Positions 5,916-43,401 of a DNA stretch of 64,000 nucleotides are shown here, one piece after another (positions within the stretch are counted from its first letter, which is position 1; the number at the start of each line of letters is the position of its first letter). This DNA comes from Deltaproteobacteria bacterium. GTDB lineage: Bacteria > Desulfobacterota > Syntrophia > Syntrophales > UBA2210. Below the pieces are notes generated by a model. The model ran no database searches and was not told the DNA's origin. It worked only from the letters and a program-made list of their open reading frames with translations. The stretch spans positions 9,264 to 73,263 of the forward strand of contig JAFDAI010000006.1 of the NCBI GenBank assembly GCA_019313905.1. The letters are read 5' to 3'. Both the position numbers and the translations under genes were made by a program.

Positions 5916-6025
5916 TGTTAACGCATTAGTAAGATAGAAGTTGCTTTCTCGTGGAAAGCGACTTCATTATCGCACTTATCCCCTTTGGGGGGCTTATCCC
6001 GTTTATCGGGGTTAGGAGAGTTTCA

Positions 6026-6364
6026 ATGGAAGAACACCGGCCATGGGGATATTATCAGGTACTTTCTGATGAAGCTGATCACAAAGTAAAGAGGATTGTT
6101 GTTTATCCCGGCAAACGTTTGAGCCTCCAGAGACACCGTCGTCGTGATGAACACTGGTATCTGCTGACCGGGGAGGGCATTGTCACCATCGGCAGTGAAG
6201 ATCTGCATGTAAAAAGAGGACAATCGGTGGATATTCCAAGAGGCGCGCTGCATCGTATGATGAATTCCGGGACAGGGCCTGTAATGTTTATAGAAGTCCA
6301 GACGGGCGATTACTTTGGTGAAGACGATATCGAGCGGGTTGAGGATGATTATGGACGGGTCTAA
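6026..6364 (+). CDS. cupin-domain protein (type II phosphomannose isomerase C-terminal domain-like)
   Basis: RPWGYY...KRIVVYPGKRLSLQRHRRRDEHWYLLTGEG...IPRGALHRMMN is the cupin GxxxSxQxHxxRxExW pattern. ATG at 6026 is preceded by AGGAGAG. The track's upstream GTG start (5951) is unlikely. Confidence 0.7.
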   Translation: MEEHRPWGYYQVLSDEADHKVKRIVVYPGKRLSLQRHRRRDEHWYLLTGEGIVTIGSEDLHVKRGQSVDIPRGALHRMMNSGTGPVMFIEVQTGDYFGEDDIERVEDDYGRV

Positions 6365-9573: not shown

Positions 9574-10104
9574 TTACTCGTTCTGAAGGTCAGCAGCTAA
9601 CTGTACAAGAACCGCAACCTGATCATCCGGCACACGACCACGCACGATGGCACGGCATACACCATCCTTGTCCAGAAGTATCGCGTTTGCGCTGTTTGTC
9701 TTGAGACCCCACGCATTCCTTAACGACGCGTCATAATCAAAAAGGATAACGGTCTTATATTTCTCTGCCTTTGCGGCGCCGAATGACTTAATAAGAAAAT
9801 CCGGCTTCCATGATGCCTTGCAATCGGCAATTCCTATCCCTTTATAAGTCGCATTTTTGAGAAGCCCGTCATCTTTTGCCTTTTTCATGGCCTCGGTGAA
9901 ATGCTCATTCATGTCTTTCTCATCCGGATCATTATAATTAACCAGAAGCACCTTACCTGCCCAGCTTTGCATCGTATACACCTTGCCGTCCGCGTCCGGG
10001 AATGACCAGTCCGAAGCCTTGTCTCCCACCTTTAAATCACCCGCGATCGCGCCTGAAACTGTCCATAACAACACCAGCAAAACTGTAAAAAATATCTTTT
10101 TCAT
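9574..10104 (-). CDS. secreted YtfJ-family / thioredoxin-fold protein without CxxC
   Basis: Signal peptide MKKIFFTVLLVLLWTVSGAIA. Overall layout (GKVLLVNY...ILLDKDG) resembles periplasmic YtfJ. No redox-active cysteine pair. Confidence 0.5.
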   Translation of the reverse strand: MKKIFFTVLLVLLWTVSGAIAGDLKVGDKASDWSFPDADGKVYTMQSWAGKVLLVNYNDPDEKDMNEHFTEAMKKAKDDGLLKNATYKGIGIADCKASWKPDFLIKSFGAAKAEKYKTVILFDYDASLRNAWGLKTNSANAILLDKDGVCRAIVRGRVPDDQVAVLVQLAADLQNE

Positions 10105-13217: not shown

Positions 13218-15855
<2,638 letters not shown>

Positions 15856-15983: not shown

Positions 15984-16466
15984 ATGAAAATAGGCGTTAT
16001 TTCCGACACTCATCTTAATGTTTCCGACGACAGACTTGAAAAGATCGTAGAGGATTATTTTCGTGATGTTGACTTAATCCTGCATGCGGGAGATATAATT
16101 GAGTTGGATGTCCTCAATGTTTTCAAAGGCATAGACGTGTACGCCGTTAGTGGAAATATGGATCGCGATTCGGTTAGGGAAGTGTTTCCCGAAAAACAGA
16201 TATTGGAGATCGAAGGGCGAAAAATAGGCTTGATACATGGCTGGGGGTCTCCATTTGGTTTGGAAGATAAGATAATGCAGGAATTTGAGAATGTTGAGTG
16301 CATAGTGTATGGTCATACACACCGGGTCATGAACGAGACGAGAAACGGTGTGCTGCTCTTCAATCCCGGATCACCTACAGATCGGAAATTTACCAGACAC
16401 AATTCAGTAGGGATACTGGATGTCGGAGAAGGGATAACCGGAAGGATTATATATCTGGAAGATTAG
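15984..16466 (+). CDS. YfcE/MJ0936-family metallophosphoesterase
   Basis: MKIGVISDTHL...HAGD...GNMD...GHTH motif series. Confidence 0.8.
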   Translation: MKIGVISDTHLNVSDDRLEKIVEDYFRDVDLILHAGDIIELDVLNVFKGIDVYAVSGNMDRDSVREVFPEKQILEIEGRKIGLIHGWGSPFGLEDKIMQEFENVECIVYGHTHRVMNETRNGVLLFNPGSPTDRKFTRHNSVGILDVGEGITGRIIYLED

Positions 16467-16648
16467 GGTCTGTCATGAAATAAGTGTTGCAGTTAGGCGC
16501 TCAGATTTAGGTTAGGTTTAGTCGATACGAGTGAGTAAAACCGTAAGAATAGCAGGGCTCTTTTGAGGATTTTGCGATTGAGAATCGGCTAAAAATGGCC
16601 TGAAGATGAGATGCATAAATGTGATACTTATTTCATGACAGACCCTTA
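16463..16648. mobile_element. MITE-like non-autonomous element with terminal inverted repeats and TTA flanks
   Basis: GGGTCTGTCATGAAATAAGT at 16466-16485 is the perfect reverse complement of 16626-16645 (21 bp if the adjacent A/T is included). 140-nt non-coding interior. TTA lies on both flanks (16463-16465, 16646-16648). Confidence 0.6.
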
Positions 16649-17988: not shown

Positions 17989-18007
17989 CTCGTAACTGCT
18001 CAGGTTC

Positions 18008-18035
18008 AGGGTTCAAGACTGACCCCTTGAACCCT
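18008..18035. repeat. 10-bp perfect hairpin embedded in TTCAAG/TTCGAG short repeats
   Basis: AGGGTTCAAG (18008-18017) and CTTGAACCCT (18026-18035) with an 8-nt loop. No U-tract on either strand. Confidence 0.5.
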
Positions 18036-18055
18036 TGAATCCTCGAATCCTTCTC

Positions 18056-27234: not shown

Positions 27235-28881
27235 GTGGTGCAGGGAAAAATAGTTGTCATGTCTGAAGAGCTGTCCAACAGGATAGCCGCGGGCGAGGTA
27301 ATTGAAAGGCCCGCCTCCATAGTCAAGGAGCTTGTCGAGAATTCCCTTGATGCCGGCGCGACTGACATCCTTGTTGAACTTGAGAGCGGAGGAAAGCAAT
27401 CTGTAAAGGTTGTGGATAACGGCAGGGGGATCGACAGGGATGACGTGGCCCTGGCCTTTGAGAGACACGCCACGAGCAAGATATATACATTTGAAGACAT
27501 CCATGAGATAGAATCTTTCGGGTTTCGCGGCGAGGCCATCGCGAGCATAGCTTCCATATCCAGGATTGAAATGCTGACAAGAAAGGAAAATTCTCTGTCA
27601 GGTACCCGGGCGGTGGTAAAGGGAGGAAGAGTCGAAGAGATTATTGATGCCGGCTGCCCTGTCGGCACATCGGTAACTGTCAGTGATATCTTTTATTCCA
27701 CGCCAGCCCGGATGAAGTTTATGAAGGGGGATTCCACCGAACAGACCCACTGCATAGACGCCATAATGAGGCTGGCGCTTTCCAACCCGGAAGTGAAAAT
27801 GAGGGTTGTCGCAAAAGGCAAAGCTGTCCTTAATGTACCGAGAACAAAAAATCTGTCAGACAGAATTGCACTTGTATTTGGCGAAGACTTCGGGAGACAC
27901 ACACTTGAGGTTGAAGGACAAAGGGGAAATGCAACCATTCGAGGGATCATCTCCATGCCCGACCGCACAAGGGCAAACACGAAGGGGCAATTCTATTTTA
28001 TCAACAACAGATTTATAAGGGACAGACTCCTGAATCATTCGGTTATAACCTCTTACAGAAGATTGATAGAACCTAGGAGATTTCCTTACGTCGTCCTGTT
28101 TATAGATATGCCCGCGTCCGATGTGGATATAAATGTCCATCCGGCCAAGATGGAGGTGCGCTTCAGAAGCTCTGGAGATGTATACAGTCTTGTTACAGAC
28201 ACCCTTTCCAGGGCGCTGTCCGGTATGTCCACTGCCAGAACTGACTTCCCCGAGCCCTCTTTCGGAGTGAGTGCGGGTGCGTACAGAGAAAGGGTTGGAG
28301 ATGTTTTAAAAAAGTACACCGTTCTGTCAGGTGCTGAAAAGAAAACCTTTAATATGAATGTTTCTGAGGGGGGAATGAGAAAGGCGTGGGATTCTTCCGG
28401 CTGGAAAGGAGGCGAGGAAGAGCTGCCAACCCTTTTCAATGAGCATGATGTGCCGGAAGACACGGTAACCTTCTCGTCTCTCAAATACTTGGGACAAATT
28501 GCGGGCACATACCTCGCGTTTTCATCGGACGGCGCATTTATTCTCATGGATCAGCATGCGGCCCACGAGAGGGTGCTTTTTGAAAAGCTGAAGGTGTCCA
28601 CGAAAGAGATGACACATATTCAGGGCTTGCTGATACCGGAGATTGTGAGCCTTCAACCCGGACGCTTTGATCTGCTTATGAATAATATTGACGTGCTGAA
28701 AGATGCGGGACTTGGCGTGGAGCGGTATGGCGAGAATACGATACTGGTAAAACAGATTCCCGCCTTCCTGACTGGGTGCAATCTGGAAGAGCTTATTTCC
28801 GATATAATAGAAGAAATCGGGGATACAGGGAAGACTGCGAATATCGATGAAACAAGAGACAAAATCCTTACCAGACCTTGA
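27235..28881 (+). CDS. mutL: DNA mismatch repair protein MutL, 3' end disrupted
   Basis: IAAGEVIERPASIVKELVENSLDAG GHKL ATPase start and DQHAAHERVLFEKL endonuclease motif. The ORF stops at ...DKILTRP*, before the ACR/SCK and CPHGRP motifs. Confidence 0.85.
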   Translation: MVQGKIVVMSEELSNRIAAGEVIERPASIVKELVENSLDAGATDILVELESGGKQSVKVVDNGRGIDRDDVALAFERHATSKIYTFEDIHEIESFGFRGEAIASIASISRIEMLTRKENSLSGTRAVVKGGRVEEIIDAGCPVGTSVTVSDIFYSTPARMKFMKGDSTEQTHCIDAIMRLALSNPEVKMRVVAKGKAVLNVPRTKNLSDRIALVFGEDFGRHTLEVEGQRGNATIRGIISMPDRTRANTKGQFYFINNRFIRDRLLNHSVITSYRRLIEPRRFPYVVLFIDMPASDVDINVHPAKMEVRFRSSGDVYSLVTDTLSRALSGMSTARTDFPEPSFGVSAGAYRERVGDVLKKYTVLSGAEKKTFNMNVSEGGMRKAWDSSGWKGGEEELPTLFNEHDVPEDTVTFSSLKYLGQIAGTYLAFSSDGAFILMDQHAAHERVLFEKLKVSTKEMTHIQGLLIPEIVSLQPGRFDLLMNNIDVLKDAGLGVERYGENTILVKQIPAFLTGCNLEELISDIIEEIGDTGKTANIDETRDKILTRP

Positions 28882-28975
28882 TTCAATACCATTCGCGGCG
28901 ACCTGCCCGCATGGGAGACCTACCTATGCAGTGCTTCGCATAAGGGATTTGGAGAGGATGTTCAAGCGAAGATGA
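28877..28975 (+). pseudogene. detached MutL C-terminal fragment in another frame
   Basis: Manual translation gives LDSIPFAATCPHGRPTYAVLRIRDLERMFKRR*, the canonical MutL end including C(P/N)HGRP. Confidence 0.65.
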
Positions 28976-29013
28976 CGGATAACCAGGAGAGTAGGGAGTA
29001 AGGAATAACCGGA

Positions 29014-29973
29014 ATGCAAAACTCAAGACCCGAAACTCGAAACCCCCAAAAGGGGACACGCCCGAAACCCCCGCTTATTGTTATCATGGGTCCCACCGGT
29101 GTGGGAAAGACCAGCCTGGCGATCAAACTTGCCGAAAGATACAACGGAGAAATTATCAGTGCCGACTCAATGCAGATTTACAGGTACATGGATATAGGCA
29201 CTGCAAAACCTTCTTCTGAAGAGAGGCTTCGTGTACCCCATCACCTGATTGATGTTGTAAATCCGGATGAAGAATTCAATGCCTCAATGTTTGTGAAAAA
29301 GGCCGATGAGGCAATTGCGCTTCTTCACAGCAGGCATAAAAAGGTGTTTGTGGTGGGAGGCACAGGATTGTATCTGGACGCCCTGCTCGGCGGGCTTTTG
29401 AGTGCCCCCGGCGCTGACGGGAGACTCCGCGATTCCTATAGAAGGGATGCCTCGCAATATGGAAAAGAACATCTTTACAAACGGTTAAAGGAGATAGATG
29501 CGATAGCCGCCGAGAAAATACACCCGAATGACCTTGTCAGGACAATCAGGGCGCTTGAGGTGCTGGAGCATACCGGACAGTCCATCACCGAGATACAGGG
29601 AGAACACAAATTCAGCAATAATGCTTATGATTTCGTGAAGATAGGCCTTAATATCGACAGGAATCTCTTGTATGACAGGATAAATGACAGAGTTGAGAAG
29701 ATGATAGAGACCGGACTTGTGGAGGAAGTGGAAAGACTTATGGACAGGGGTTATGACGAATCAGTCAGGCCGATGCAATCGATGACCTACAGGAACGTTA
29801 TTTCCTTCATCAGGGGAAAACAGAGCGAGCAGGATATGGTGAGATTGATCAAGCGTGATACGAGGCACTATGCTCGCAGACAACTGACCTGGTTCAAGAG
29901 GGATCCGGACATCAAATGGTTTGCCCCTCAGGATGAAAATATGATAAGTGGCACGATTGAAAAATTTGTGTGA
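29014..29973 (+). CDS. miaA: tRNA dimethylallyltransferase
   Basis: IMGPTGVGKTSLAI P-loop, DSMQIYR, HHLIDV motifs. The first ~20 codons are a shared DNA-level leader module, so the exact start is uncertain. Confidence 0.88.
   Translation: MQNSRPETRNPQKGTRPKPPLIVIMGPTGVGKTSLAIKLAERYNGEIISADSMQIYRYMDIGTAKPSSEERLRVPHHLIDVVNPDEEFNASMFVKKADEAIALLHSRHKKVFVVGGTGLYLDALLGGLLSAPGADGRLRDSYRRDASQYGKEHLYKRLKEIDAIAAEKIHPNDLVRTIRALEVLEHTGQSITEIQGEHKFSNNAYDFVKIGLNIDRNLLYDRINDRVEKMIETGLVEEVERLMDRGYDESVRPMQSMTYRNVISFIRGKQSEQDMVRLIKRDTRHYARRQLTWFKRDPDIKWFAPQDENMISGTIEKFV
29018..29072 (+). repeat. leader module shared with trmFO (heptamer repeats + CCCCCAAAAGGGGACACNCCCGAAACCCCC)
   Basis: 39 nt, ACTCGAAACCCCCAAAAGGGGACACGCCCGAAACCCCCG, matches the trmFO 5' region with 2 mismatches (manual alignment). 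Confidence 0.65.
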
Positions 29974-30013
29974 GCAGTTTATGCTCGCTATAGTAAATCA
30001 AGAAGGACGTGTT

Positions 30014-32671
30014 ATGGAAAAAGAAGAATTGAACAAATCTTATGAGTCTCGTGATGTTGAAGAAAAGTGGTATCGGAGCTGGCTTGATGAAGGCCTGTTC
30101 CGGGCGGAAGATAAGAGTGACAAAAAACCTTTCTCGATAGTTATTCCCCCGCCGAATGTTACCGGGATACTTCACATAGGACACGCGCTGAACAATACCC
30201 TGCAGGATATTATCGTGAGATATAAGAGGATGGATGGCTGCAATACGCTCTGGATGCCCGGAACTGATCACGCGGGAATTGCCACTCAGAACGTGGTGGA
30301 GCAGGAACTTGCCAGAGAGGGAACGACCAGGCACGATATAGGAAGAGAAAGATTTATAGAGAAGGTGTGGGAATGGAAGAAAGAATATGGCGGCGCCATC
30401 ATAAACCAGCTGCATAAGATGGGCTGTTCCTGCGACTGGTCCCGGGAACGGTTTACCATGGATGATGGACTTTCCCGCGCGGTCAGGGAGGTTTTTGTCC
30501 GGCTCTATAATGATGATCTTATATATCAGGGTGATTATATCATTAACTGGTGTCCAAGGTGTCATACGGCCATATCCGACCTTGAGGTTGAATATGAGGA
30601 AGAAGAGACCAGCCTCTGGCATATACGATATCCATATGCCGAAGGAGAGGGCGAAATAGTTGTGGCTACGACACGTCCGGAGACCATGCTGGGCGATACT
30701 GCCGTTGCGGTCAACCCCGACGACGAAAGATACGCGGATGTTATAGGGAAGGAAGTAATTCTTCCGATTGTGAACAAGAGGATACCGATTATCGCGGATG
30801 ATTACGTGTCCAGGGAATTCGGTACAGGCGCGGTGAAGATAACACCTTCAGCGGATCCCAACGACTTTGCCATGGCGCAAAGACATGATCTTGATGTGGT
30901 TACTATTATAGACAAGAGTGCTATTATAAATGAAAACGGCGGAATATATCAGGGGCAGGATTGTTACACATGCCGGGAAAATATCGTTGAGGATCTTAAG
31001 AAGGGCGGCTATCTTGTGAAAACAGAGCCCTATTCACACAACGTGGGGCGCTGTTACAGATGCAAGACTGTTGTGGAGCCAGCGGTATCCAAACAGTGGT
31101 TTGTCAAGGTGAAACCCCTGGCAAGGCCGGCGATCGCTGCAGTTGTGAAAGGTGAGACAAAGATTATTCCTTCCACGTGGGAGGCCACATATTTTGACTG
31201 GATGGATAATATAAGGGACTGGTGTATTTCCAGGCAGATATGGTGGGGACACAGAATACCGGTATGGTATTGTAATGATTGTGGTAACACCATAGCGGCA
31301 GTTAAAGACCCTGACAGTTGCCCCGAATGTGGGGGGACTTCTCTCAGGCAGGATGAGGATGTCCTGGATACATGGTTCAGTTCCTCTCTATGGCCGTTCT
31401 CAACCATGGGATGGCCGGATAAAACGCAGGCGCTTGAGACATTTTATCCCACTTCGCTCCTTGTAACCGGGTTTGATATCATATTTTTCTGGGTAGCCAG
31501 GATGATGATGATGGGGCTTTACGTTATGGGAAAGGTTCCCTTCTCAGATGTTTATCTGCATGCCCTTGTTCGGGATGAAAAGGGCGACAAGATGAGTAAA
31601 TCAAGTGGAAACAGTGTAAATCCACTGGAAATGATTGACAAATACGGTGCAGACGCCCTTCGCTTCACCCTGGCGGCCTTTACCGCGCAGGGGCGGGATG
31701 TGAAGATGTCTGAGGAGCGCATTAAGGGATACAGACATTTTGTAAATAAGATATGGAACTCGGCCAGATTTTCTCTGATGAATCTTGAGGATTATCCTGG
31801 GGAAACCGTATTAAAACGGGAAGAATATTCGCTCTGTGACCGGTGGATCAAAGACAGTCTTAACAGTACGGTGGCGGATGTCAGGAAAGCGCTTGACGAA
31901 TATCGGTTTAACGATGCCGCGGGCAGGATATATCAGTTTATCTGGCATGAGTTCTGTGACTGGTACCTTGAGCTGATAAAACCGGCACTGTATGACAAAC
32001 AACAATCACGGCAGGGAAAACTTGCCGCCCAACAGACATTGCTCTCAGTATTAAAGACAACCCTTCAACTCCTTCATCCCTTCATGCCCTTTGTCACAGA
32101 GGAAATATGGCAGAAATTAACAACAGACGAGGGATATATAATGGTGAGCGAATTTCCCGACCAGGATGATTCTCTCAGGGATGAAGATGCAAGGCAACGG
32201 ATGGATCTTATTAAGAATATTATAAACAGTATCAGAAATATAAGGGGTGTAATGAATATCAGTCCTTCAAAAAAGTTGAAGGCACTTGTTTCCGCTCCCG
32301 ATAGTGATATGCTGTCCATTATAGAGGCAGGCAGAGACTATATAAGGGACATCGCGAAGCTGGAAGACCTGATGATAGAGAAAAATGCCATAGAGCCGAA
32401 GGGGTCTGCGACAGGGGTAGTGGGTCCTGTCAAGGTGTATATATTCCTTGAAGGTGCTGTGGATGTCGCGGCCGAGAAGACAAGGCTGGAAAAGGAAATG
32501 AAAAAGCTTGATAAAGACCTCGGTTTCATCTCCAAAAAACTGGGAAATCAGGATTTTCTGGAAAAGGCGTCCAAGAATATAGTTGAAAAAGAAGAAAATA
32601 AATTCAGAGACCTGAAGGAAAAAAGCGGGGTGCTGGAAGACGCTCTGGGCAGGCTCCGTAATATAGCGTGA
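30014..32671 (+). CDS. valS: valine--tRNA ligase
   Basis: PPNVTGILHIGHA (HIGH) and KMSKSSGN (KMSKS) motifs, plus a C-terminal coiled coil. Start placed at MEKEELNKSYESRDVEEKWY. Confidence 0.95.
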   Translation: MEKEELNKSYESRDVEEKWYRSWLDEGLFRAEDKSDKKPFSIVIPPPNVTGILHIGHALNNTLQDIIVRYKRMDGCNTLWMPGTDHAGIATQNVVEQELAREGTTRHDIGRERFIEKVWEWKKEYGGAIINQLHKMGCSCDWSRERFTMDDGLSRAVREVFVRLYNDDLIYQGDYIINWCPRCHTAISDLEVEYEEEETSLWHIRYPYAEGEGEIVVATTRPETMLGDTAVAVNPDDERYADVIGKEVILPIVNKRIPIIADDYVSREFGTGAVKITPSADPNDFAMAQRHDLDVVTIIDKSAIINENGGIYQGQDCYTCRENIVEDLKKGGYLVKTEPYSHNVGRCYRCKTVVEPAVSKQWFVKVKPLARPAIAAVVKGETKIIPSTWEATYFDWMDNIRDWCISRQIWWGHRIPVWYCNDCGNTIAAVKDPDSCPECGGTSLRQDEDVLDTWFSSSLWPFSTMGWPDKTQALETFYPTSLLVTGFDIIFFWVARMMMMGLYVMGKVPFSDVYLHALVRDEKGDKMSKSSGNSVNPLEMIDKYGADALRFTLAAFTAQGRDVKMSEERIKGYRHFVNKIWNSARFSLMNLEDYPGETVLKREEYSLCDRWIKDSLNSTVADVRKALDEYRFNDAAGRIYQFIWHEFCDWYLELIKPALYDKQQSRQGKLAAQQTLLSVLKTTLQLLHPFMPFVTEEIWQKLTTDEGYIMVSEFPDQDDSLRDEDARQRMDLIKNIINSIRNIRGVMNISPSKKLKALVSAPDSDMLSIIEAGRDYIRDIAKLEDLMIEKNAIEPKGSATGVVGPVKVYIFLEGAVDVAAEKTRLEKEMKKLDKDLGFISKKLGNQDFLEKASKNIVEKEENKFRDLKEKSGVLEDALGRLRNIA

Positions 32672-32679
32672 GGATTATC

Positions 32680-33522
32680 ATGATTTCAGATATCAGGTTG
32701 AAGGAACTTATCCGGACAGCGTTTGATGAAGACATGGGGTCGGGTGACCTTACCACGTCATCTATCCTTACCGGTGACGAAACCGGTGTTGCGCAGGTGA
32801 TTTCGAAGGGAGAAATCATAGTTGCGGGTATCAATGTTTTCAGAGAGGTATTCCATGTTCTGGATTCATCTCTGGACTTTGAGACGTATTTCTGCGACGG
32901 CCAATCGGCGGGGGAAGGAGAGATTCTTGCCTGTGTTTCGGGCAGCCTGAAAAGTATTCTCCTTGCAGAACGCGTGGCGTTGAATTTTTTTCAGAGAATG
33001 TGCGGGATTGCCACGATGACACACCAATATGTTGAAGAAGTAAGAGGCATTGGAGTCAAAATACTGGATACTAGAAAGACGACGCCAAACCTGAGAAGTC
33101 TTGAGAAATACGCGGTAAAAACAGGAGGGGGACTTAATCACAGATTCGGCCTGTATGATGGTGTGATGATCAAGGATAACCACATAACCGCTGCGGGGAG
33201 TATCTCGGATGCGGTAAGAAAAGTGATTGGAAATATTCCACCCACTGTAAAGATCGAAGTAGAGGTGAAAAACCTTCAGGAAGTTGAAGAGGCCCTTGCC
33301 ACGGGAGCTGATATAATCATGCTGGACAATATGGTGACAGGGGAGATGAAAAAAGCGGTTTCTCTCATCGATAGAAAGGCGCTGGTCGAGGCCTCGGGAA
33401 ATGTCACCCTGTCGAATGTGAAGGAGATCGCGGGAACCGGTGTGGACTTTATATCTGTCGGGGCGCTTACTCATTCCGCACCCGCCGCCGATATATCGCT
33501 TGTGTTCAAGAATAAGGGGTGA
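32680..33522 (+). CDS. nadC: nicotinate-nucleotide diphosphorylase (carboxylating)
   Basis: EDMGSGDLTT start. ILDTRKTTPNLR and MIKDNH motifs. Confidence 0.9.
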   Translation: MISDIRLKELIRTAFDEDMGSGDLTTSSILTGDETGVAQVISKGEIIVAGINVFREVFHVLDSSLDFETYFCDGQSAGEGEILACVSGSLKSILLAERVALNFFQRMCGIATMTHQYVEEVRGIGVKILDTRKTTPNLRSLEKYAVKTGGGLNHRFGLYDGVMIKDNHITAAGSISDAVRKVIGNIPPTVKIEVEVKNLQEVEEALATGADIIMLDNMVTGEMKKAVSLIDRKALVEASGNVTLSNVKEIAGTGVDFISVGALTHSAPAADISLVFKNKG

Positions 33523-33555
33523 GGAGTAAGGTACAACAACCCGGAACTCGAAACC

Positions 33556-34362: not shown

Positions 34363-35127
34363 ATGCTTCTGGTTATCGATGTGGGAAATTCAAATACCGT
34401 TATTGGTCTTTATGATGGGGATAAACTTTTAAACCACTGGAGAGTTCGTACAGTAGCGGACCACACCGTTGATGAATACGGAATGCTTCTTTTGAATCTC
34501 TACAAGACAAGTAAAATGGGTTCAGACTCCATTGATGCTGTCATTATATCATGCGTAGTGCCATCCATGCTGAATATACTGGAACCTCTTTGCAGGAAAT
34601 ATTTTCATCTTACTCCGCTCATCGTGGGCCCGGGTATAAAGACGAGTATGCCAATATACTATGACAATCCGAAAGACGTGGGTGCTGACAGGGTTGTCAA
34701 CGCCGTTGCCGCCCATGAGAAATATGAAGGGAATCTCATCATTGTGGATTTTGGCACAGCGACTACCTTTGATTATATTACGAAAAAGGGAGAGTATATG
34801 GGCGGATGCATAGCTCCGGGGGTTGTTATATCAAGCGAGGCGCTCTTTGAGAAGGCCTCCAAGTTGCCGCCGGTTGAATTCAGCAGACCTAAATCCGTAG
34901 TTGCCAGGGATACCGTGAGCAGTATACAGGCTGGCATCATGTTTGGGTATGCAGGTCTTGTAGACGGGATAGTGGATCGTATAAAGAAGGAAACAAAGAC
35001 GGAATCCACCGTTATCGCAACAGGCGGGCTGGCGAAAGTTATGACCGCGGAAGCCAGTAGCATTGATCTTGTCGATGAAATGCTTACACTGGAAGGACTT
35101 AAGATAATCCATTCAAGAAACATATAA
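34363..35127 (+). CDS. coaX: type III pantothenate kinase
   Basis: [12 protein letters not shown]...GADR...DFGTATTFD motifs. Confidence 0.92.
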
Positions 35128-36528
35128 TCCCATCCATTTTCTCAGCGCATCGATGGAGCGCCCGGCATAAATCCCGCCTCTTTCTTTCTTTGGCGCCCGG
35201 TTTTCAAGCGGAGCAAAGAGACCGAAATTCACATTCATCGGCTGAAAGGTTTTATAATCAGCGTTTGTAATGTGACGTAAAAGCGCACCCAGAGCGGTTG
35301 TTCCCGGAGGTTCCTCCATATCCCTTCCCTCTATATACCGGCAGACGTTTATTCCAGCCATCAATCCCATGGCTGCCGATTCCACATATCCTTCAACACC
35401 GGTAAGCTGTCCCGCAAAGAAGAGGTTATCATCGGAGTGAAACTGAAGTGATCTTTTAAGCAGGGCAGGGGAATTTATGAATGTGTTGCGGTGTATGCTG
35501 CCGTATCTGGCGAACTCGGCCTTTTCCAGTCCCGGTATCATCCTGAAAATGCGTTTCTGTTCAGGCCATGTCAGTTTTGTTTGAAATCCCACCAGATTGT
35601 AAAGAGTGCCCTCACTGTTTTCCTGTCTGAGTTGGACTACGGCATGGGGTCGCTTTCCTGTTTTCGGATCTGTAAGTCCCACCGGTTTCATCGGGCCGAA
35701 AAGCAGGGTTTTCGGCCCCCTTCTTGCGAGGATCTCAACAGGAAGGCATCCTTCAAAAAAACGCCTGTCTTCAAAATCTCTGAGGGGTACCTCATCCCCG
35801 CCCGATATTTCCGTCCAGAACCTTTCATATTCCTCCCTTGTCATGGGGCAGTTCAAATAGTCTCCTTCACCGCTGTTGTCGTATCTCGATGCCCTGAAAG
35901 CCCTGTTGTAGTCAATAGAGCGTGCTTCCACGATGGGTGAAATGGCGTCATAGAAATAGAGGTATTCATTTCCTGTAACGGAAGAAATGGTTTTTGCCAG
36001 AGATTCGGATGTGAGAGGACCAGTAGCTATAATGACTATGGAATCTTCAGGGATTCCGACGACCTCTTCCCTGATTATCCGGAGCCTGGTGGATGCGAGC
36101 CTGTCTTCAATATAGTTTGAAAAAAGGGTTCTATCCACGGCCAGGGCCTTGCCTGCCGGAACGGCTGTGGCATCGGCGGCTTCCATTACCAATGATCCCA
36201 TCGTGCGCATCTCTTCCTTGAGAAGACCAATCGCATTTTCTATCGCGTTGGAGCGGAAAGAGTTACTGCATACGAGTTCCGCGAGGAGAGGGGATTTGTG
36301 AGCCGGAGAGAAGAGGGTGGGTTTCATTTCGTAAAGTAGAGTGTCAAATCCCCTTCTTGAAATTTGCCACGCGGCCTCACACCCTGCAAGTCCGCCACCT
36401 ATGATTATAACAGGTTTAGAGAGAGCCTCCTTTTGGGTGTTTCGGATGCGTCCCATTCCGGGGGTTTCGGGTGTGTCCCCTTTTGGGGGTTTCAAGTTTC
36501 GAGTATCTGATTTCAAATTTTGATTCAC
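35113..36528 (-). CDS. trmFO: methylenetetrahydrofolate--tRNA-(uracil54-C5)-methyltransferase (FADH2-oxidising)
   Basis: [17 protein letters not shown] motif with Gid/TrmFO length and context (dprA-topA-trmFO). The first ~35 codons are the shared leader module, so the true start probably lies downstream of 36528. Confidence 0.88.
36460..36520 (-). repeat. leader module shared with miaA
   Basis: Reverse complement reads AAATTTGAAATCAGATACTCGAAACTTGAAACCCCCAAAAGGGGACACACCCGAAACCCCCG. A degenerate second unit GAAACACCCAAAAGGAGG follows at about 36425-36445. Confidence 0.65.
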
Positions 36529-36554
36529 TCCCTATATCCCATACCCTACACCTT

Positions 36555-38819
36555 TTACTCTTCATCTCTCTCTTTATACCCGCATTCCTTGTTGGGACAC
36601 GTTTTTATGAGACCTTTCCCACGGTAATACTTTTCGACCAGAAATGGATGGCCGCATAATGGACATTTCTCCGGTATCGGCCTGTCCCACAGGGCATAGG
36701 TGCAGTTCGGGTAGTTTGAACATCCAAAGAACGTCTTGCCTTTTTTTGAACGTCTCTCACAGAGGCTGCCGCCACACCCCTCCTGCGGGCATTCTACCCC
36801 TGTATCGATCGGTTTTGTATTCTTGCATTCCGGGTACCCCGAGCATCCCAGAAATCTTCCGAATTTGCCTTCCTTGATAATCATACTCTTGCCACACACG
36901 TCGCAGATAATATCGGTTGTCTCCGCCTCCATTTTGCTGATTGCGCCATTTTCATCCTGCGCGATATTGCCTGTATTCTTGCATTCAGGATAGTTGGAAC
37001 AGGCCAGGAATTTCCCGTTCTTTCCCCACTTTATTACCATTGGGCTTCCACACTTATCGCATGCAAGATCGGTGGGGATTTCTTCTCTCTTGACATTTTT
37101 CATTTCTTTACCGGCCTTTTCCAGCTCCGACTTAAAGGGGGTATAGAAATCCTCTAATGTCTTATGTCTTGTGAGATTCCCCTCCTCGATCATATCCAGG
37201 TTGTTTTCCATCGAAGCGGTGAACTGGACATCCATGATGTTGGGAAAATTCTCTACAAGAAGCCCATTGACAATGGTTCCGAGTTCCGTGGGGTGGAATC
37301 TGCCCTTTTCAAGTTCTGCATACTTTCTGTTCTGTATAGTGCTTATGATAGCGGCATATGTGCTGGGTCTGCCGATCCCTTTTTCTTCCAGCTCTTTCAC
37401 GAGAGTCGCTTCGGAAAACCTTGCCGGCGGCTGCGTGAAACTTTGCTGCGGTTCCAGTGAGATCAGGGTAAGCTCATCCCCTTTGGAAACCTCTGGGAGT
37501 TCCGACGTGTCCGGCTTGCCCGACTGGTTATCTCTGTCATTGACTTCTTTATCTGTGGTTTCTGTGTAAACAATGCTGAACCCGGGGAATTTCATTATAG
37601 AACCCTGCGCGTGGAGAAGACAGCGACCCGCCTCTATATCAATGCCTGTCTGGTCGAATACAGCCGGATTCATCTGGCTCGCTATGAAGCGGTTCCATAT
37701 CAGTTGATACAGACGAAATTCGTCATTCTTGAGATACTGTTTGATATTTTGTGGCGTGTATGCTGTCGCGGTCGGTCTTATTGCCTCATGCGCGTCCTGT
37801 GAAGATTTTGGGGATTTGAAGAATCTGGCTTTTGCGGGAAGGAATTCTTTTCCATAATTCTTTTCTATGTACCCTCTCGCGTCTTCCAGGGCTTCCGACG
37901 CTACACGGACCGAATCGGTTCTCATGTACGTGATAAGACCAACGGAACCTTCTTCCCCCAGTTCTATTCCCTCATAAAGCCTCTGGGCCACACTCATCGT
38001 TCTTTTTGCCGTGAAACGAAGCTTTCTTGATGCCTCCTGCTGGAGTTTGCTTGTAGTGAATGGGGGAGCCGGAGAACGCTTTACCTCCTTTTCCTCCACT
38101 TTCTTCACAATAAAGGAAGCGTCTTTCAGCTCTTCGAGCAGTTCTTTTGTCTGAGTTTCATTTGTAAGTTTCAGCTTTTTGGAGTCTATTTTTGTCAGTC
38201 GCGCTTCAAGGGGAGGAGGATTGTCTCCCTCCAGCACAGCTGTAATGTTCCAGTATTCCTCCGATACAAACGCCTGGATCTCGGCCTCTCTGTCGCATAT
38301 TATTCTTACCGCAACCGACTGGACCCGGCCCGCGCTCAGTCCACGCTGTACCTTTTCCCAGAGTATCGGACTGATTTGATATCCTACAAGCCTGTCAAGA
38401 ATCCGCCTGGTCTGTTGGGCCTCATATTTATTGATGTTAAGCTTCGAAGGATTATTGATGGCCGCGATAACGGTTTTCTTTGTAAGATCGTTGAAGAGTA
38501 CCCTGTAGATATTTTTATTTCCGCCTATTTCGCTCGCCACGTGCCATGCTATGGCTTCTCCTTCTCTGTCAGGGTCAGGCGCCAGAAAGATATTATCCAC
38601 GTTCTTCGCGGATTTCTTCAGCTCAGAGATGACTTTTTTCTTTTCACTGATAACTTCGTAAGTTGGTTCAAAATTGTTTTCAAGATCAATACCCAGTTTG
38701 CTTTTGGGAAGGTCTTTTACGTGTCCAACAGAGGCCTTCACCTCAAATTCCGGGCCGAGATATTTCTTTATCGTTTTTATTTTTGCCGGCGATTCAACGA
38801 TAATAAGAGAACTGGGCAT
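36555..38819 (-). CDS. topA: DNA topoisomerase I
   Basis: 754 aa. TOPRIM start LIIVESPAKIKTI, catalytic-Tyr region GLITYMRTDS, multiple C-terminal C4 zinc ribbons. Confidence 0.95.
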   Translation of the reverse strand: MPSSLIIVESPAKIKTIKKYLGPEFEVKASVGHVKDLPKSKLGIDLENNFEPTYEVISEKKKVISELKKSAKNVDNIFLAPDPDREGEAIAWHVASEIGGNKNIYRVLFNDLTKKTVIAAINNPSKLNINKYEAQQTRRILDRLVGYQISPILWEKVQRGLSAGRVQSVAVRIICDREAEIQAFVSEEYWNITAVLEGDNPPPLEARLTKIDSKKLKLTNETQTKELLEELKDASFIVKKVEEKEVKRSPAPPFTTSKLQQEASRKLRFTAKRTMSVAQRLYEGIELGEEGSVGLITYMRTDSVRVASEALEDARGYIEKNYGKEFLPAKARFFKSPKSSQDAHEAIRPTATAYTPQNIKQYLKNDEFRLYQLIWNRFIASQMNPAVFDQTGIDIEAGRCLLHAQGSIMKFPGFSIVYTETTDKEVNDRDNQSGKPDTSELPEVSKGDELTLISLEPQQSFTQPPARFSEATLVKELEEKGIGRPSTYAAIISTIQNRKYAELEKGRFHPTELGTIVNGLLVENFPNIMDVQFTASMENNLDMIEEGNLTRHKTLEDFYTPFKSELEKAGKEMKNVKREEIPTDLACDKCGSPMVIKWGKNGKFLACSNYPECKNTGNIAQDENGAISKMEAETTDIICDVCGKSMIIKEGKFGRFLGCSGYPECKNTKPIDTGVECPQEGCGGSLCERRSKKGKTFFGCSNYPNCTYALWDRPIPEKCPLCGHPFLVEKYYRGKGLIKTCPNKECGYKERDEE

Positions 38820-40068: not shown

Positions 40069-40198
40069 ACCCTGAAGTTGTAATAATTTCACAATTACTC
40101 AGAGGGCAGGGGGAAACTCCAGCCTCTCATTAAACAGGATGATAACCACTTGTTAAGAATAAAGACTTTAACCCTGAACCCTGAAGAAAGGTATAGCA

Positions 40199-43075
40199 TT
40201 GTTTAAATCAAAATCTATAATTGCCGCGGTCTTTGCCGCGCTTTTGATGTTTGTGGAGTTGCCCGCTCTGTTCGCGCAGGTCAATCAGCCTGTTGAAGAA
40301 GGACCTATCCTTTCTGTAATGCCCGAGGTGATAGATTTTGGCGTTCTGGAGGGAACAGCGACGGGGGTCGAGTTTATTGAGATAAGCAACAAAGGGCAGG
40401 GGAAGATAAAATGGATAGTTAAAAGGACAGAACCCTGGCTGACGCTGGATGTGTATTTCGGGGTTGTGGGTGACGGTGTTAATGTCGTACCAATTACAGC
40501 AGATCCGAGTGATCTTTCCCCGGGACATCACCAGGCTGAAATTGCCATAACATCGTCCTGCGGGACCAGAACCGTACCGGTTTCCATTACCGTTCTCCCG
40601 GATAATGATGATACATTCATACCGGAATTGGAGGAAATCAATCTGGATGTGGTGGCTACTGCCACTCAGGTCGGCAGAAAAATTTACCTGGGCGCTGTCG
40701 GTGTATATTCGGATGGTTCCAAAAAAGATATTACAAAAGAGATAAAATGGGTATCAAAGAACAGGAGGGTTGGATATTTTATCGATAAGGGACTTTTTAT
40801 CGGAAAACAGACGGGGGATGTATCTGTCTTCGCGAAGAAGGATGGAATTAAAAGCCCTGTAATTACAATCCATATAGATGCCCTCGATGGACCCGTCCTG
40901 AAGGTGTCTCTGCCGAAGATCAAGCTGGATCATATGGAAAGGGGGTCGGTTGAAGATATTCCCATGACTCTGCGAAATGCAGGCAAGGGAGAATTGGAGT
41001 GGGAAATCATAAGCATGACGCCATGGCTGGTATTGAATGGAGGCATATCTTCAGATGGCGCGAAAGAAGATCTGCCGGACGAATGGAAATCTGTATACAG
41101 CAGCCTGCATGGCAGAGGTAAAAAGAAGGTAAAAATTGTTGTGGATACCACAGAACTTCCGGATGGAAGGCACGAGGGGATCATTCTGGTAAGATCAAAC
41201 GGAGGCGATCAGAAAATAACTGTTCCCGTAAAGATTCGTTCACTCGAATCCATCTCCCTCACGCCGGTTTCTGTAAGAATGGCTGTCAACCATAAAACAA
41301 TGTTCAGGGCGACCGGTATGTGGTCCGACGGGAGCAGAACCGATCTTTCAGGGGGTTCGGATGGAAGATGGATAATATCTGATTCTTCCATCGGGTTCTT
41401 CCCGCGCGGCAGATCTGTCTTTGTGGCCCAAAACACCGGTCCTGTGGAGATCAGAAGAGTGAGAGGGGATGTAAGCAGCAATGTCGCGGTTGTTGATGTT
41501 GAAGAGGATGTTGCAGGTCCTGTTCTGCTGGTATCTCCCCGCGAAGTGGATTTTGGCGCAATAGGCCCCGGCGAGAGTTCAAAGGGTGTAATTTCCCTTA
41601 AAAATGTTGGAGGCGGAAACCTGACGTGGCAGGTGAACAGGATGGGAGACTGGATATCGCCATTTGATGACACGCTTTCAGGAACGGCCGGGATGTCCGC
41701 GCGTTACCTTCGTATTTCAGTTGAGTCTATGGCAGATGATGGAGCTTTAGTGGATGGGCTGTCTGACATTCGGATGAAATTCGAAACGAGACATAAAACA
41801 GTGTATTATAGAAAGCTTCTGTCTACCGGGAGCTACAGAGAAGAGCTAAAGGTATCCTTTAATGGAGGAGAGCGAACTGTATTTCTAAAATTTGTTGTGG
41901 CAGAGAAGGAGGGCTCTCGTTCCTCTATGGATGTAAAGCCTCTCGGAATAGACTTTGGCAGTGTTGATGCCGGCATAAAATTGATGAAAAGGGTTGAACT
42001 GAGAAACGCGGGGGGGAATGTCCTGAAATGGAAGGCGATACTGCAGAGAAACAGGAAGACTTTCCGGGGCGTGGTTCTTGAAAGGGGCAGGTATGTTTCG
42101 TTTGCTAATGAGGCCGTTTTGGGGAAGGGTAGCTATAGCGTGCCGGGCCGTTTGGAAAGCGAGCTTGATATCTCCGGTGAATGGTCCGAGAAGGGTGGCT
42201 ATCCATATGGCACAGGTGACAATAAACTACTGAAATATACATTCTTTGGGAAAGGAATAGTCCTCTTTTTATGGAAGGACGTTTATGGGGGAATTCTTGA
42301 TCTTTTTGTTGATAACCAGATGGTGGGTCAGATAGATTGCGCATCCGAGAAGAAAAAAAGGATTGAATTTCCGGTGGTGGAAAACCTGGCGGAGGGGGAG
42401 CCGCATTTGCTCGTCCTGGCGGCAAGAGGGGGAAGTGTAGAAATTGAAGGCGTGAGGATTTATACTTCGGGGCTCATGAAGGGTAAGAAGGGCTGGATAA
42501 GGATATCTCCTGAAAAGGGAACCACCACGAATGAAGTGGATTACATTAATGTAATGGTCAACACCGGGGACTTATCCCCCGGTTCGTATAGTGAGAATAT
42601 ACTTTTTTATTCCAGCGAGGGGGCCGAAACAGTTGAAGTGTCACTTGATATCAGGAGCGACAAGGTGTCAGAATTAATTGATATCTACAGGTATACAAAA
42701 GGAACGGACAGCTTGCTGTCTCCAGATGTCGCGCGCGGGGACTTCTCGCTTGAAGGATACAAAAAAAGTGGGCCGGCATTCAGACTCTTTCACAAGGATA
42801 CGCCGGGAACCACAGAATTCTTCCAGTGGCATAATCCTTCGGAGGCAACCCATTTTTATTCCTACATCCGGTCAGGTGGAAAACATTCTCTAAAGGGATA
42901 TGTTTTTGACGGGTCTATAGGAAATATCGCAACCCTGAAATTGCCCCACACCAGAGATCTGTACAGATGGTTCAATCCTGAAACGAGAGCATATTTCTAT
43001 ACGACAGACCCGAAGGGTGAAAGTCGCGAGAAAATGGGATACATATACGACGGAGTGGCGGGATATGTCAGGTAG
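40199..43075 (+). CDS. large secreted multidomain protein (BACON-like + Ig-like Big_2 domains, C-terminal HFY(T/S) repeat module)
   Basis: Signal peptide MFKSKSIIAAVFAALLMFVELPALFAQ. Repeated 'IDFG...G...W.....PWL' beta-sandwich units, Big_2-like segments (..VGVYSDGSKKDIT..) and C-terminal repeats (THFYSY, AYFYTTDPKGE). Confidence 0.6.
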   Translation: MFKSKSIIAAVFAALLMFVELPALFAQVNQPVEEGPILSVMPEVIDFGVLEGTATGVEFIEISNKGQGKIKWIVKRTEPWLTLDVYFGVVGDGVNVVPITADPSDLSPGHHQAEIAITSSCGTRTVPVSITVLPDNDDTFIPELEEINLDVVATATQVGRKIYLGAVGVYSDGSKKDITKEIKWVSKNRRVGYFIDKGLFIGKQTGDVSVFAKKDGIKSPVITIHIDALDGPVLKVSLPKIKLDHMERGSVEDIPMTLRNAGKGELEWEIISMTPWLVLNGGISSDGAKEDLPDEWKSVYSSLHGRGKKKVKIVVDTTELPDGRHEGIILVRSNGGDQKITVPVKIRSLESISLTPVSVRMAVNHKTMFRATGMWSDGSRTDLSGGSDGRWIISDSSIGFFPRGRSVFVAQNTGPVEIRRVRGDVSSNVAVVDVEEDVAGPVLLVSPREVDFGAIGPGESSKGVISLKNVGGGNLTWQVNRMGDWISPFDDTLSGTAGMSARYLRISVESMADDGALVDGLSDIRMKFETRHKTVYYRKLLSTGSYREELKVSFNGGERTVFLKFVVAEKEGSRSSMDVKPLGIDFGSVDAGIKLMKRVELRNAGGNVLKWKAILQRNRKTFRGVVLERGRYVSFANEAVLGKGSYSVPGRLESELDISGEWSEKGGYPYGTGDNKLLKYTFFGKGIVLFLWKDVYGGILDLFVDNQMVGQIDCASEKKKRIEFPVVENLAEGEPHLLVLAARGGSVEIEGVRIYTSGLMKGKKGWIRISPEKGTTTNEVDYINVMVNTGDLSPGSYSENILFYSSEGAETVEVSLDIRSDKVSELIDIYRYTKGTDSLLSPDVARGDFSLEGYKKSGPAFRLFHKDTPGTTEFFQWHNPSEATHFYSYIRSGGKHSLKGYVFDGSIGNIATLKLPHTRDLYRWFNPETRAYFYTTDPKGESREKMGYIYDGVAGYVR

Positions 43076-43189: not shown

Positions 43190-43266
<77 letters not shown>

Positions 43267-43323: not shown

Positions 43324-43401
43324 GGTGGATGTAGCTCAGTTGGTTAGAGTGCCTGGTTGTGGCCCAGGAGGTCGGGGGTTCAAGTCCCCTCATTCACCCC
43401 A
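43324..43401 (+). tRNA. tRNA-His (anticodon GTG) with encoded G-1 and CCA
   Basis: Acceptor GTGGATG/CATTCAC. An extra 5' G pairs with discriminator C. Anticodon stem CCTGG/CCAGG with loop TTGTGGC. T-loop TTCAAGT. Confidence 0.88.

Follow-up and report, generated by a model that had tools for sequence, protein, structure and literature searches.

Tandem 7- and 25-nt repeats at the starts of miaA and trmFO in an uncultured Syntrophales lineage probably encode tolerated N-terminal tails

The genes for two tRNA-modification enzymes, MiaA and TrmFO, lie on opposite strands of a 64,000-nt stretch of contig JAFDAI010000006.1 (referred to here as the window), which comes from an uncultured Syntrophales bacterium, and each gene begins with a copy of the same short repeat module. 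Thousands of homologous database proteins, together with solved structures, support the gene assignments. Direct comparison of the miaA copy, ACTCGAAACCCCCAAAAGGGGACACGCCCGAAACCCCCG, with the trmFO copy on the minus strand, ACTTGAAACCCCCAAAAGGGGACACACCCGAAACCCCCG, showed identity at 37 of 39 positions, as a preliminary description of this DNA had stated. A repeat search of the 64-kb window lengthened the match to 46 nt at 93% identity (43/46), with miaA positions 29028–29073 on the plus strand paired to trmFO positions 36459–36504 on the minus strand. This pair is the top-ranked and by far the strongest repeat in the window; the 17-mer CCCCCAAAAGGGGACAC occurs there exactly twice, once in each gene, and none of 100 dinucleotide-preserving shuffles attained the observed match count. 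The same description had placed the module inside the annotated N-terminal extensions of both genes, and both copies do occupy the first codons of the longest open reading frames (ORFs; miaA, 29014..29973, plus strand; trmFO, 36528..35113, minus strand). The homology also reaches back, through degenerate heptads, as far as the start codons. Across the shared DNA the reading frames of the two genes are offset by one base, and the claim that conservation is at the level of the nucleic acid was borne out. The N-terminus encoded by the miaA ORF consists of the tail MQNSRPETRNPQKGTRPKPP followed by LIVIMGPTGVGKT.

The module is a tandem array, a property that the preliminary description had not recognized. 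It is composed of degenerate GAAACYC heptads and of 25-nt units, each consisting of a heptad joined to an 18-nt insert, CCCCAAAAGGGGACACGC, of the hairpin-forming CCCC-AAAA-GGGG-ACACGC type. Tandem Repeats Finder (TRF) reported a 25-nt period with 2.4 copies at 36435–36493 and, in a second row, a period of 14 nt with 1.9 copies at 29019–29045. The sequence CGAAACCCCC recurs at 25-nt spacing in both genes (at 29038 and 29063 in miaA). There are three units in trmFO and about 1.5 in miaA (one full and one partial), preceded in both genes by degenerate heptads of the YGAAAYY type that reach back to the start codon. Compared with miaA, trmFO has one additional heptad, TTGAAAC, and this single 7-nt insertion accounts for the one-base difference in frame. 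The report that the two copies are read in different frames is therefore true; a special meaning need not be attached to it, since such arrays would encode the same cyclic peptide in whatever frame. When the 128,000 57-mers of the window are ranked by T content, both modules fall among the lowest four, and so little T is present that no sense frame of the array contains a stop codon. The miaA copy falls within the longest plus-strand stretch that has no stop triplet in any frame.

The array appears to be translated in both genes, because no canonical start codon separates it from the essential first β-strand (β1) of the protein. In miaA, no ATG, GTG or TTG occurs between the start at 29014 and β1; the ATG at codon 25 is inside β1 and is not conserved (orthologs have ACA, ACG, ATA or ACC). 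The candidate starts of trmFO are GTG1, TTG5, TTG12 and ATG25. Short orthologous forms have the first two only, so at least the ancestral unit should be coding everywhere. Two further genes that carry the module, encoding a short-chain dehydrogenase (SDR) and an AMP-binding ligase (see below), have no start codon downstream of it. The suspicion that the annotated start codons of miaA and trmFO are wrong was not borne out: the module is apparently translated and, in trmFO, its last unit would be coding at any candidate start. Homology to structures in the PDB begins at residue 18 of MiaA and residue 40 of TrmFO. The AlphaFold model of MiaA has a mean predicted local distance difference test (pLDDT) score of 88.5, with values below 50 for residues 1–14, no secondary structure before residue 20, and β1 at residues 20–25. 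The array-coded tail is rich in Pro, Lys, Thr, Asn and Gly and is mildly basic, with a net charge of about +4 in both MiaA and TrmFO. Judged from the sequence and the model, the array is read through as a predicted disordered, mildly basic tail that ends where β1 of the nucleotide-binding fold begins, and its translation would yield repeat-derived peptides such as NPQKGTRPKPPLIVIMGPTGVGK.

Array lengths in related genomes (relatives carry L numbers) were compared from the conserved start contexts. The differences were 57, 9, 18, 18 and 3 nt, all multiples of 3; if frame were irrelevant, we estimate the chance of five independent in-frame events at about (1/3)^5 = 0.004. The 5′ region measures 138, 81 or 72 nt in trmFO and 102, 96, 87, 84, 75, 69 or 66 nt in miaA. 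From the GTG to GGTGGCGG the distance is 138 nt in the window and in L005, versus 81 nt in L007, L021 and L024. The form with a net loss of 57 nt is also found on contigs of metagenomes X3 and X5, in X5 alongside the long form, so copy number differs even among strains that share a sediment. Unit lengths that are not multiples of 3, a variable copy number and the apparently defective mutL of the window might be expected of a contingency locus, in which gain or loss of a single 7- or 25-nt unit toggles the genes by frameshift (phase variation). Every observed variant is in frame, however, divergence among the window's units is too great for slippage to be frequent, and the hosts are housekeeping genes; we regard phase variation as scarcely credible.

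Table 1. Positions of the repeat units and flanking features in the window
Feature	Position	Strand	Remarks
G/A-rich Shine–Dalgarno (SD)-like run GGAGAGTAGGGAGTAAGGA	28986..29004	+	Upstream of miaA start; comparable tandem SD-like heptads upstream of trmFO/miaA in relatives
miaA ATG	29014..29016	+	Sole canonical in-frame start upstream of β1; ATGnAAAAC/GTTC context recurs in L017, L004, L024, L018
Degenerate heptads CAAAACT CAAGACC CGAAACT CGAAAC	29017..29043	+	Coding QNSRPETRN; L020 and L024 have 4–5 clean heptads here
miaA 25-nt unit TCGAAACCCCCAAAAGGGGACACGC	29037..29061	+	One mismatch to family consensus; nhmmer 34.8 bits; 18-nt insert missing from miaA of L005 and L024
Mini hairpin CCCC-CAAAA-GGGG	29043..29055	+	In minimum free energy (MFE) structure
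Terminal partial unit CCGAAACCCCCG	29062..29073	+	Coding PKPP; abuts β1 directly
MiaA first structural element LIVIMGPTGVGKT (β1 + P-loop)	29074..29112	+	Boundary of repeat-coded tail
GAAAC-type heptads CAACAAC CCGGAAC TCGAAAC C	33536..33555	+	5′ untranslated region (UTR) immediately before birA ATG; no SD within 12 nt
TrmFO first structural element (β1 + GxGxxG loop)	36376..36411	-	PDB homology to 3g5q from residue 40
trmFO unit 3 CCGAAACACCCAAAAGGAGGCTCTC	36421..36445	-	Ancestral unit, in all close orthologs
57-nt segment (one heptad + two units)	36445..36501	-	Only in window and L005/L011 lineage; holds near-identical miaA match
trmFO unit 2 CCGAAACCCCCGGAATGGGACGCAT	36446..36470	-	Contains in-frame ATG, codon 25
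trmFO unit 1 TTGAAACCCCCAAAAGGGGACACAC	36471..36495	-	TRF, consensus, nhmmer
Degenerate heptads ..TCAAAAT TTGAAAT CAGATAC TCGAAAC TTGAAAC	36489..36525	-	Last (TTGAAAC) is the frame-shifting extra; MAFFT self-aligns the stretch one register along
trmFO GTG	36526..36528	-	First in-frame start; GTGAATCAAAAYTTGAAATCAGATAC context kept in orthologs
G-rich SD-like run GGTGTAGGGTATGGGATATAGGGA	36529..36552	-	Between topA stop and trmFO start; corresponding runs: (GGGGTAA)x4 (L005), (AAGGAGT)-type heptads (L007, L021)

The proteins closest to those of the window come from metagenome-assembled genomes (MAGs) of uncultured Thermodesulfobacteriota, Syntrophales or "Deltaproteobacteria". The relatives are Syntrophales-type inhabitants of vent and seep sediments, and low-similarity matches to window DNA came from metagenomes of hydrothermal vents and cold seeps; the best public sequencing run had only 18% of the window's words in common, and none of the runs listed was marked as RNA. 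Inspection of N-termini covered 240 homologs, 120 of TrmFO and 120 of MiaA. In these proteins the segment before β1 varies from 2 to about 55 residues, and the catalytic cores are well conserved. Within the clade, the peptides that precede β1 (QKG, KPP, ETRN, KPETRNSKP and KLETRNSK) are translations of the repeat, the last of them corresponding to three tandem GAAACTC heptads. Five clean heptads stand immediately 3′ of the ATG in miaA of L020 (57% identity), and seven stand immediately 5′ of β1 in trmFO of L025 (69% identity). At the equivalent place in miaA of L018 there is a different heptad, (GCAACGC)x4, which argues that what is kept is an array and not a particular motif. The mutL–miaA spacer of L018 holds (GATCAGG)x10 and (AGAAGTA)x3 and the topA–trmFO spacer of L005 holds (GGGGTAA)x4. 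Repeat-rich spacers and arrays of this kind in the relatives indicate that short tandem repeats near cistron boundaries are a habit of the clade. In L017 (250–3300), toxin–antitoxin genes (MazE/PIN and HicB-like) replace mutL upstream of miaA and the start array is still kept. An intergenic run, TCGAATA TCGAATA TCGAAAC TCGAAAC, lies near DNA-methyltransferase genes in L025 (13727–13760, plus strand), where trmFO carries the seven GAAACYC heptads.

Further copies were sought at the DNA level by exact-pattern matching in 596 Gb of genomes, a collection that does not include the source genome, and in JGI metagenomes. Three of four matches in the genomes and three of 11 in the metagenomes were genuine; the rest were chance matches in alaS-like and other ORFs. 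The genuine copies lie in miaA (L002, L004 and L007), in trmFO (L011, which equals L005), at the 5′ end of an SDR gene between two FabA-like genes (L003), and at the 5′ end of a gene for an AMP-binding, acyl-CoA-ligase-like ligase (L006) whose ATG overlaps an upstream ABC ATPase gene's stop codon as ATGA. All of them are on the sense strand and within the first ~25 codons. The copies thus sit, co-oriented with the genes, at the mutL–miaA, topA–trmFO, ABC-ATPase/AMP-ligase and FabA/SDR junctions. A tally of downstream genes had been suggested in the preliminary description; copies were indeed found at gene starts on the sense strand, but the hosts are not limited to tRNA modification. A profile search with the 36-nt unit in 327 kb found no copies beyond those already known, with two loci in the 64-kb window. 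In one cold-seep metagenome the core was covered at about eight times the depth of the flanks, and at least three kinds of flank were seen (miaA-like, trmFO-like and one unplaced). With no further copies from the profile search, this depth and these flanks point to a low-copy family. A phmmer search of 1.84 billion representatives with the 38-residue TrmFO tail gave no matches at E ≤ 0.001, so the list of host genes is not widened at the protein level. A peptide search with the concatenated three-frame translation of the unit yielded five candidates, none of which scored, and IMG/VR gave no match and no sign of phage carriage. The layout at birA, with heptads separating a distant SD-like run from the ATG, is kept in L007, L017, L018 and L022.

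A weak third match to the module consensus in the window, at 5976–6016 on the minus strand, is at chance level and was rejected as a copy; it is a different pair of small hairpins and lies on the other strand of a 5′ UTR. The two neighboring hairpins, CTTATCCCCTTTGGGG and CTTATCCCGTTTATCGGGG (5951–6030, plus strand), belong to the 5′ UTR of an ORF resembling cupin/mannose-6-phosphate isomerase (ATG near 6026).

The range of hosts and of tail lengths bears on whether the peptide itself is selected, as a basic, flexible N-terminal appendage that binds RNA or tRNA non-specifically or aids solubility. Lys-rich extensions of eukaryotic aminoacyl-tRNA synthetases offer a model for such a tail. The charge of the MiaA and TrmFO tails, the maintenance of frame, the position of a disordered segment next to a nucleotide/tRNA-binding domain and the occurrence of the hydrophilic sense orientation only would all suit this explanation. 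Set against these, the tail varies greatly in length and sequence and many close orthologs nearly lack it, neither the SDR nor the AMP-ligase binds tRNA, the copy at birA is not translated, and the solved homologs function without such a tail. Selection on the peptide is, in our judgment, decidedly improbable.

The preliminary description favored a shared cis-regulatory RNA leader. Folds of five start regions gave z values against shuffles of +1.14, −0.09, +0.09, −0.60 and +1.96; the start regions are no more structured than their composition allows, and those of miaA and birA are rather less so. Two mutually exclusive hairpins had been proposed. The first, CCCC-(C)AAAA-GGGG, does appear in the MFE structure and is the only hairpin of the module in the predicted folds, its 4-bp stem being the sole self-complementarity present. 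Across 17 units, 92.6% of its cells are paired, with six one-sided C-to-U changes, one double change and five breaks; 11–16 of 500 shuffles did equally well, which is within the false-positive range stated for the tool. The second, GGGG-N12/13-CCCC, can be drawn on paper, but for the N13 form 340 of 500 shuffles were equally good and no covariation support was found, so that a two-state switch is not backed. No terminator-like site or promoter was detected in 28600–29300 or 36250–36950. At gathering thresholds, Rfam found only two tRNAs in the window, and in E-value mode its best matches (E = 2–7.4) were to unrelated families. The two tRNA genes lie at 43190–43263 and 43325–43398 on the plus strand (RF00005, 66–67 bits). 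A structured regulatory RNA is not supported by these observations.

A structured leader common to the two tRNA-modification genes might be an attenuator, a hairpin switch or a tRNA sensor. In one version, C4-CAAAA-G4 would resemble the A36-A37-A38 anticodon arm and G4-..CCCGAAA-C4 the T-arm, so that mimicry of the substrate would allow each enzyme to regulate its own synthesis. Two of the main hosts are indeed tRNA-modification enzymes in many genomes, the small hairpin is predicted and mostly preserved, and each hairpin shows one double compensatory change (CUUC/GAGG in L007 unit 2; GGAG/CUCC in L017). However, the module is inside the ORF and varies in length by multiples of 3, its folding and covariation are as weak as described above, terminator, promoter and Rfam matches are lacking in the regions searched, and the hairpin unit is missing from some orthologous miaA and trmFO genes. 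The SDR and AMP-ligase genes carry the same module, which is therefore not specific to tRNA modification. The shared leader was not borne out and we consider it very improbable, whereas the fallback offered with it, a small repeat located at 5′ ends by chance, comes close to what the evidence shows.

Several other identities suggested by the motif were tried and set aside. The GAAAC ends and stem-loop recall a CRISPR repeat, but CRISPR repeats are 28–37 nt long and set apart by unique spacers, whereas the 25-nt period has no spacers, and the only match to a CRISPR direct-repeat family in Rfam (opposite strand, E = 7.4, 14 bits versus a gathering score of 39) is at noise level. Sequestration of the SD, or an RNA thermometer, formed by pairing of the upstream G-rich heptads with the C tracts was rejected since fold stability is at shuffle level. 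Frameshifting (−1) on C_CCA_AAA, a G-quadruplex and an i-motif were judged from the letters alone and dropped, as nothing conserved requires them.

The origin of the near-identical pair can be approached through the orthologs. The close trmFO orthologs in L007, L021, L017 and L024 have a single unit. The additional 57 nt, which comprise one heptad and two units and form the block that matches miaA, are common to the window and to trmFO of L005. Between orthologous copies, the 32-nt core shows one to five mismatches, and the miaA coding sequences of the same genomes are 86% identical; hyper-conservation of the core was therefore rejected, as it evolves at about the rate of the coding sequence. 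We favor, with a probability of roughly 0.6, the reading that the module is a lineage-specific, start-proximal tandem repeat of 7- and 25-nt units, that its translation produces a tolerated N-terminal tail, and that it evolves by slippage under a filter for reading frame. The arrays would expand, contract and homogenize as replication slips and as GAAAC repeats recombine unequally or ectopically. The 57-nt block would have been duplicated into trmFO, by slippage or ectopic copying, in a common ancestor of the window and L005 lineages; its source may have been a sister array such as that of miaA, which would explain the 93% identity between the genes. Because neither 7 nor 25 is a multiple of 3, only combinations that restore the frame (21, 18 and 57 nt) would survive. 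The array would persist because a hydrophilic N-terminal tail is harmless, and it may be generically useful in providing A/C-rich, unstructured, start-proximal mRNA in operon-internal genes, with no specific fold or ligand. The heptad swap in L018, the loss and decay of the hairpin unit and the free variation in copy number favor a generic role at most; a function, if there is one, is probably generic.

Some observations sit less comfortably with a tolerated microsatellite. Arrays of the GAAAC type persist at the same two genes across lineages of 57–69% protein identity, and sense-only, start-near persistence represents more order than a purely neutral microsatellite should show. The birA heptads are in a 5′ UTR, which argues for a property of the RNA or DNA and not of the peptide. 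At the C4/G4 hairpin, pairing holds in 92.6% of cells and survives six C-to-U changes. One metagenomic flank context could not be placed relative to any gene, the census of copies stems from exact-match scans and a 327-kb profile search, and translation of the array is deduced from sequence.

A rival explanation is a cis-acting element for translation, in which A/C-rich repeats near the start either are bound by a trans-acting factor (S1, Csp, CsrA, Hfq or a KH-type protein) or provide a standby site or an enhancer that works independently of an SD. Synthesis of MiaA, TrmFO and a small number of other operon-internal genes might then be co-tuned, by analogy with the proposal for the TAACTGA repeats of Beggiatoaceae (PMC4679880), which provides a published precedent. 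All copies are on the sense strand, within ~30 codons of a start codon or directly before one; birA has its heptads in the UTR and no SD within 12 nt; the arrays endure at miaA and trmFO over deep divergence; and tandem SD-like G-rich heptads flank the other side of the start. The unit sequence is not fixed, though, GCAACGC taking the place of GAAACYC in L018; the hairpin insert is absent from miaA of L005 and L024 and degenerate in trmFO of L017 and L024; and copy number varies freely. Nor is any candidate motif or binding protein conserved (L005 has lost the loop GGA of unit 2), and the family is low in copy number and not a large regulon. A translation element seems unlikely. A more specific proposal, that the arrays are an operator embedded in the coding sequence and translated with it, acting as an SD-independent enhancer or as a site for an RNA-binding protein on MiaA, TrmFO and metabolic genes, or more boldly by mimicry of tRNA arms, strikes us as quite unlikely.

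The tolerated, translated repeat that we favor has partial counterparts among known heptamers. TAACTGA direct repeats occur in marine Beggiatoaceae, cyanobacteria and Bacteroidetes, with 2–7 repeats at several unrelated genes and ~170 sets in all, and have a suspected role in translation (MacGregor 2015, PMC4679880). Like GAAACYC, they consist of one heptamer found at unrelated genes, co-oriented with the gene and only a few nucleotides away from its start codon. TAACTGA genes often have no canonical SD nearby, as is the case for birA here, and the two families share a Guaymas-type sediment habitat. TAACTGA has a stop in every forward frame and is accordingly placed upstream of starts, whereas GAAACYC is stop-free, mostly downstream and apparently translated; only birA has its repeats in the untranslated position just 5′ of the start, as for TAACTGA. 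The GAAACYC family is confined to a few genes, in contrast to the ~170 sets, and only GAAACYC has the additional 25-nt hairpin unit.

Four-heptanucleotide elements in Geobacter metallireducens, as outlined in PMC2700814, are built of GGACCGG, at 49 inter- and intragenic sites; MTYCTGA in five repeats is also described. They too are dispersed tandem heptanucleotides in and between genes of a former "deltaproteobacterium", and they were labelled putative regulatory without proof. Their units are different, GC-rich and higher in copy number, and the passages on them report no bias in strand or toward starts. Among the long simple sequence repeats (SSRs) of prokaryotes, the heptanucleotide class is described as the commonest and is ascribed to slippage of the polymerase (Mrazek et al. 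2007, as cited in PMC4679880). Long SSRs and GAAACYC arrays alike are made of short head-to-tail units whose copy number varies between relatives; according to the same secondary account, SSRs in coding regions mostly have units of 3n nt, whereas here units of 7 and 25 nt lie in ORFs and sum in frame.

Larger repeats offer other points of comparison. Mycobacterial interspersed repetitive units (MIRU) have units of 40–100 bp at 40–50 loci per genome and contain small separate ORFs (Supply 1997, as summarized in PMC3184786). As summarized there, they resemble GAAACYC arrays in being tandem, variable-number units at operon junctions that are co-oriented with transcription, open for translation and overlapping the ends of flanking genes; GAAACYC differs in its 7- and 25-nt units, its few loci and the fusion of the array to the downstream gene. 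Rickettsia palindromic elements, BRE and RUP are small repeats fused in frame to ORFs (reviewed in PMC3184786). They too are nucleic-acid repeats read as extra peptide where the fold tolerates it, 5′ ends included. They are 100–150 bp long, palindromic or resembling miniature inverted-repeat transposable elements, and present in many copies; the repeat described here is microsatellite-like, with a hairpin of at most 13 nt and no terminal inverted repeats. Riboswitch, attenuator and T-box leaders share the near-5′ position and the tRNA-linked hosts, but in contrast to them the module is inside the ORF; neither an expression platform nor an Rfam match was found, its stability is at shuffle level and covariation is weak at best. 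With the known repeats the GAAACYC family has in common the short tandem unit, the co-orientation and the closeness to starts; it differs in that the array is stop-free, occupies ORFs of housekeeping genes and includes a composite 25-nt unit.

For annotation, a conspicuous nucleotide match shared by two tRNA-modification genes ought not to be recorded as a riboswitch-like leader, nor should the long N-terminal extensions of miaA and trmFO be trimmed. For genome evolution, the locus offers a clean case of a non-triplet microsatellite, with 7- and 25-nt units, inside the ORFs of essential genes and stop-free in every frame. Such arrays would generate variable, disordered N-terminal tails throughout an uncultured clade, with only in-frame combinations of units surviving. 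Should the start-proximal, sense-only placement prove functional, the arrays would join the unexplained Beggiatoaceae and Geobacter heptamers as evidence for a layer of repeat-based translational control. If the operator reading were true, they would mark a small post-transcriptional regulon in an uncultured clade of sediment Syntrophales.

Upstream of miaA, the mutL ORF of the window (27235..28881) ends in ...DKILTRP*, and the conserved C-terminus of MutL, DLDSIPFAATCPHGRPTYAVLRIRDLERMFKRR*, resumes in another frame as far as ~28977. Relative to mutL of L018 and L005, about 24 codons (VMACKGAVKANHKLTDAEVVALCE) are missing, equivalent to a deletion of ~71 nt with a frameshift in the 3′ end region (28860–28980, plus strand). 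The lesion may be either a real mismatch-repair pseudogene or an artefact of MAG assembly or strain mixture. The true mutL stop would fall only ~36 nt before the miaA ATG. Downstream of miaA, the longest valS ORF (GTG at 29948, 907 residues; 29948–30020, plus strand) overlaps the end of miaA by 26 nt. Its orthologs are called at 884–885 residues, and the real start is therefore probably ~22 codons further in.

Tandem G/A-rich SD-like repeats are found at intercistronic junctions of the window at 13541–13567, 18020–18052 and 36529–36552 on the minus strand and 33516–33535 on the plus strand, and also in L005 (~9955–9990) and L018 (~9870–9990). Examples are GGGCAAGGAGTGA in two copies, AAGGRTTC in four copies followed by a complementary arm, GGGGTGAGGAGTAAGG, (GGGGTAA)x4, and (GATCAGG)x10 with (AGAAGTA)x3; the (GGGGTAA)x4 run also matches a G-quadruplex motif. 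Elsewhere in the window, a 34-nt inverted repeat with 85% complementarity occupies 16465–16498 and 16613–16646, its arms 114 nt apart. The run (AACCCTG)x2.3 at 40170–40185 (plus strand) lies just 5′ of a 958-residue ORF that starts at 40199, and the similar TGAACCCTGAACC adjoins the repeat at 18020 (18000–18020, minus strand). AACCCTG-type runs may represent a further class of small repeat close to gene starts.

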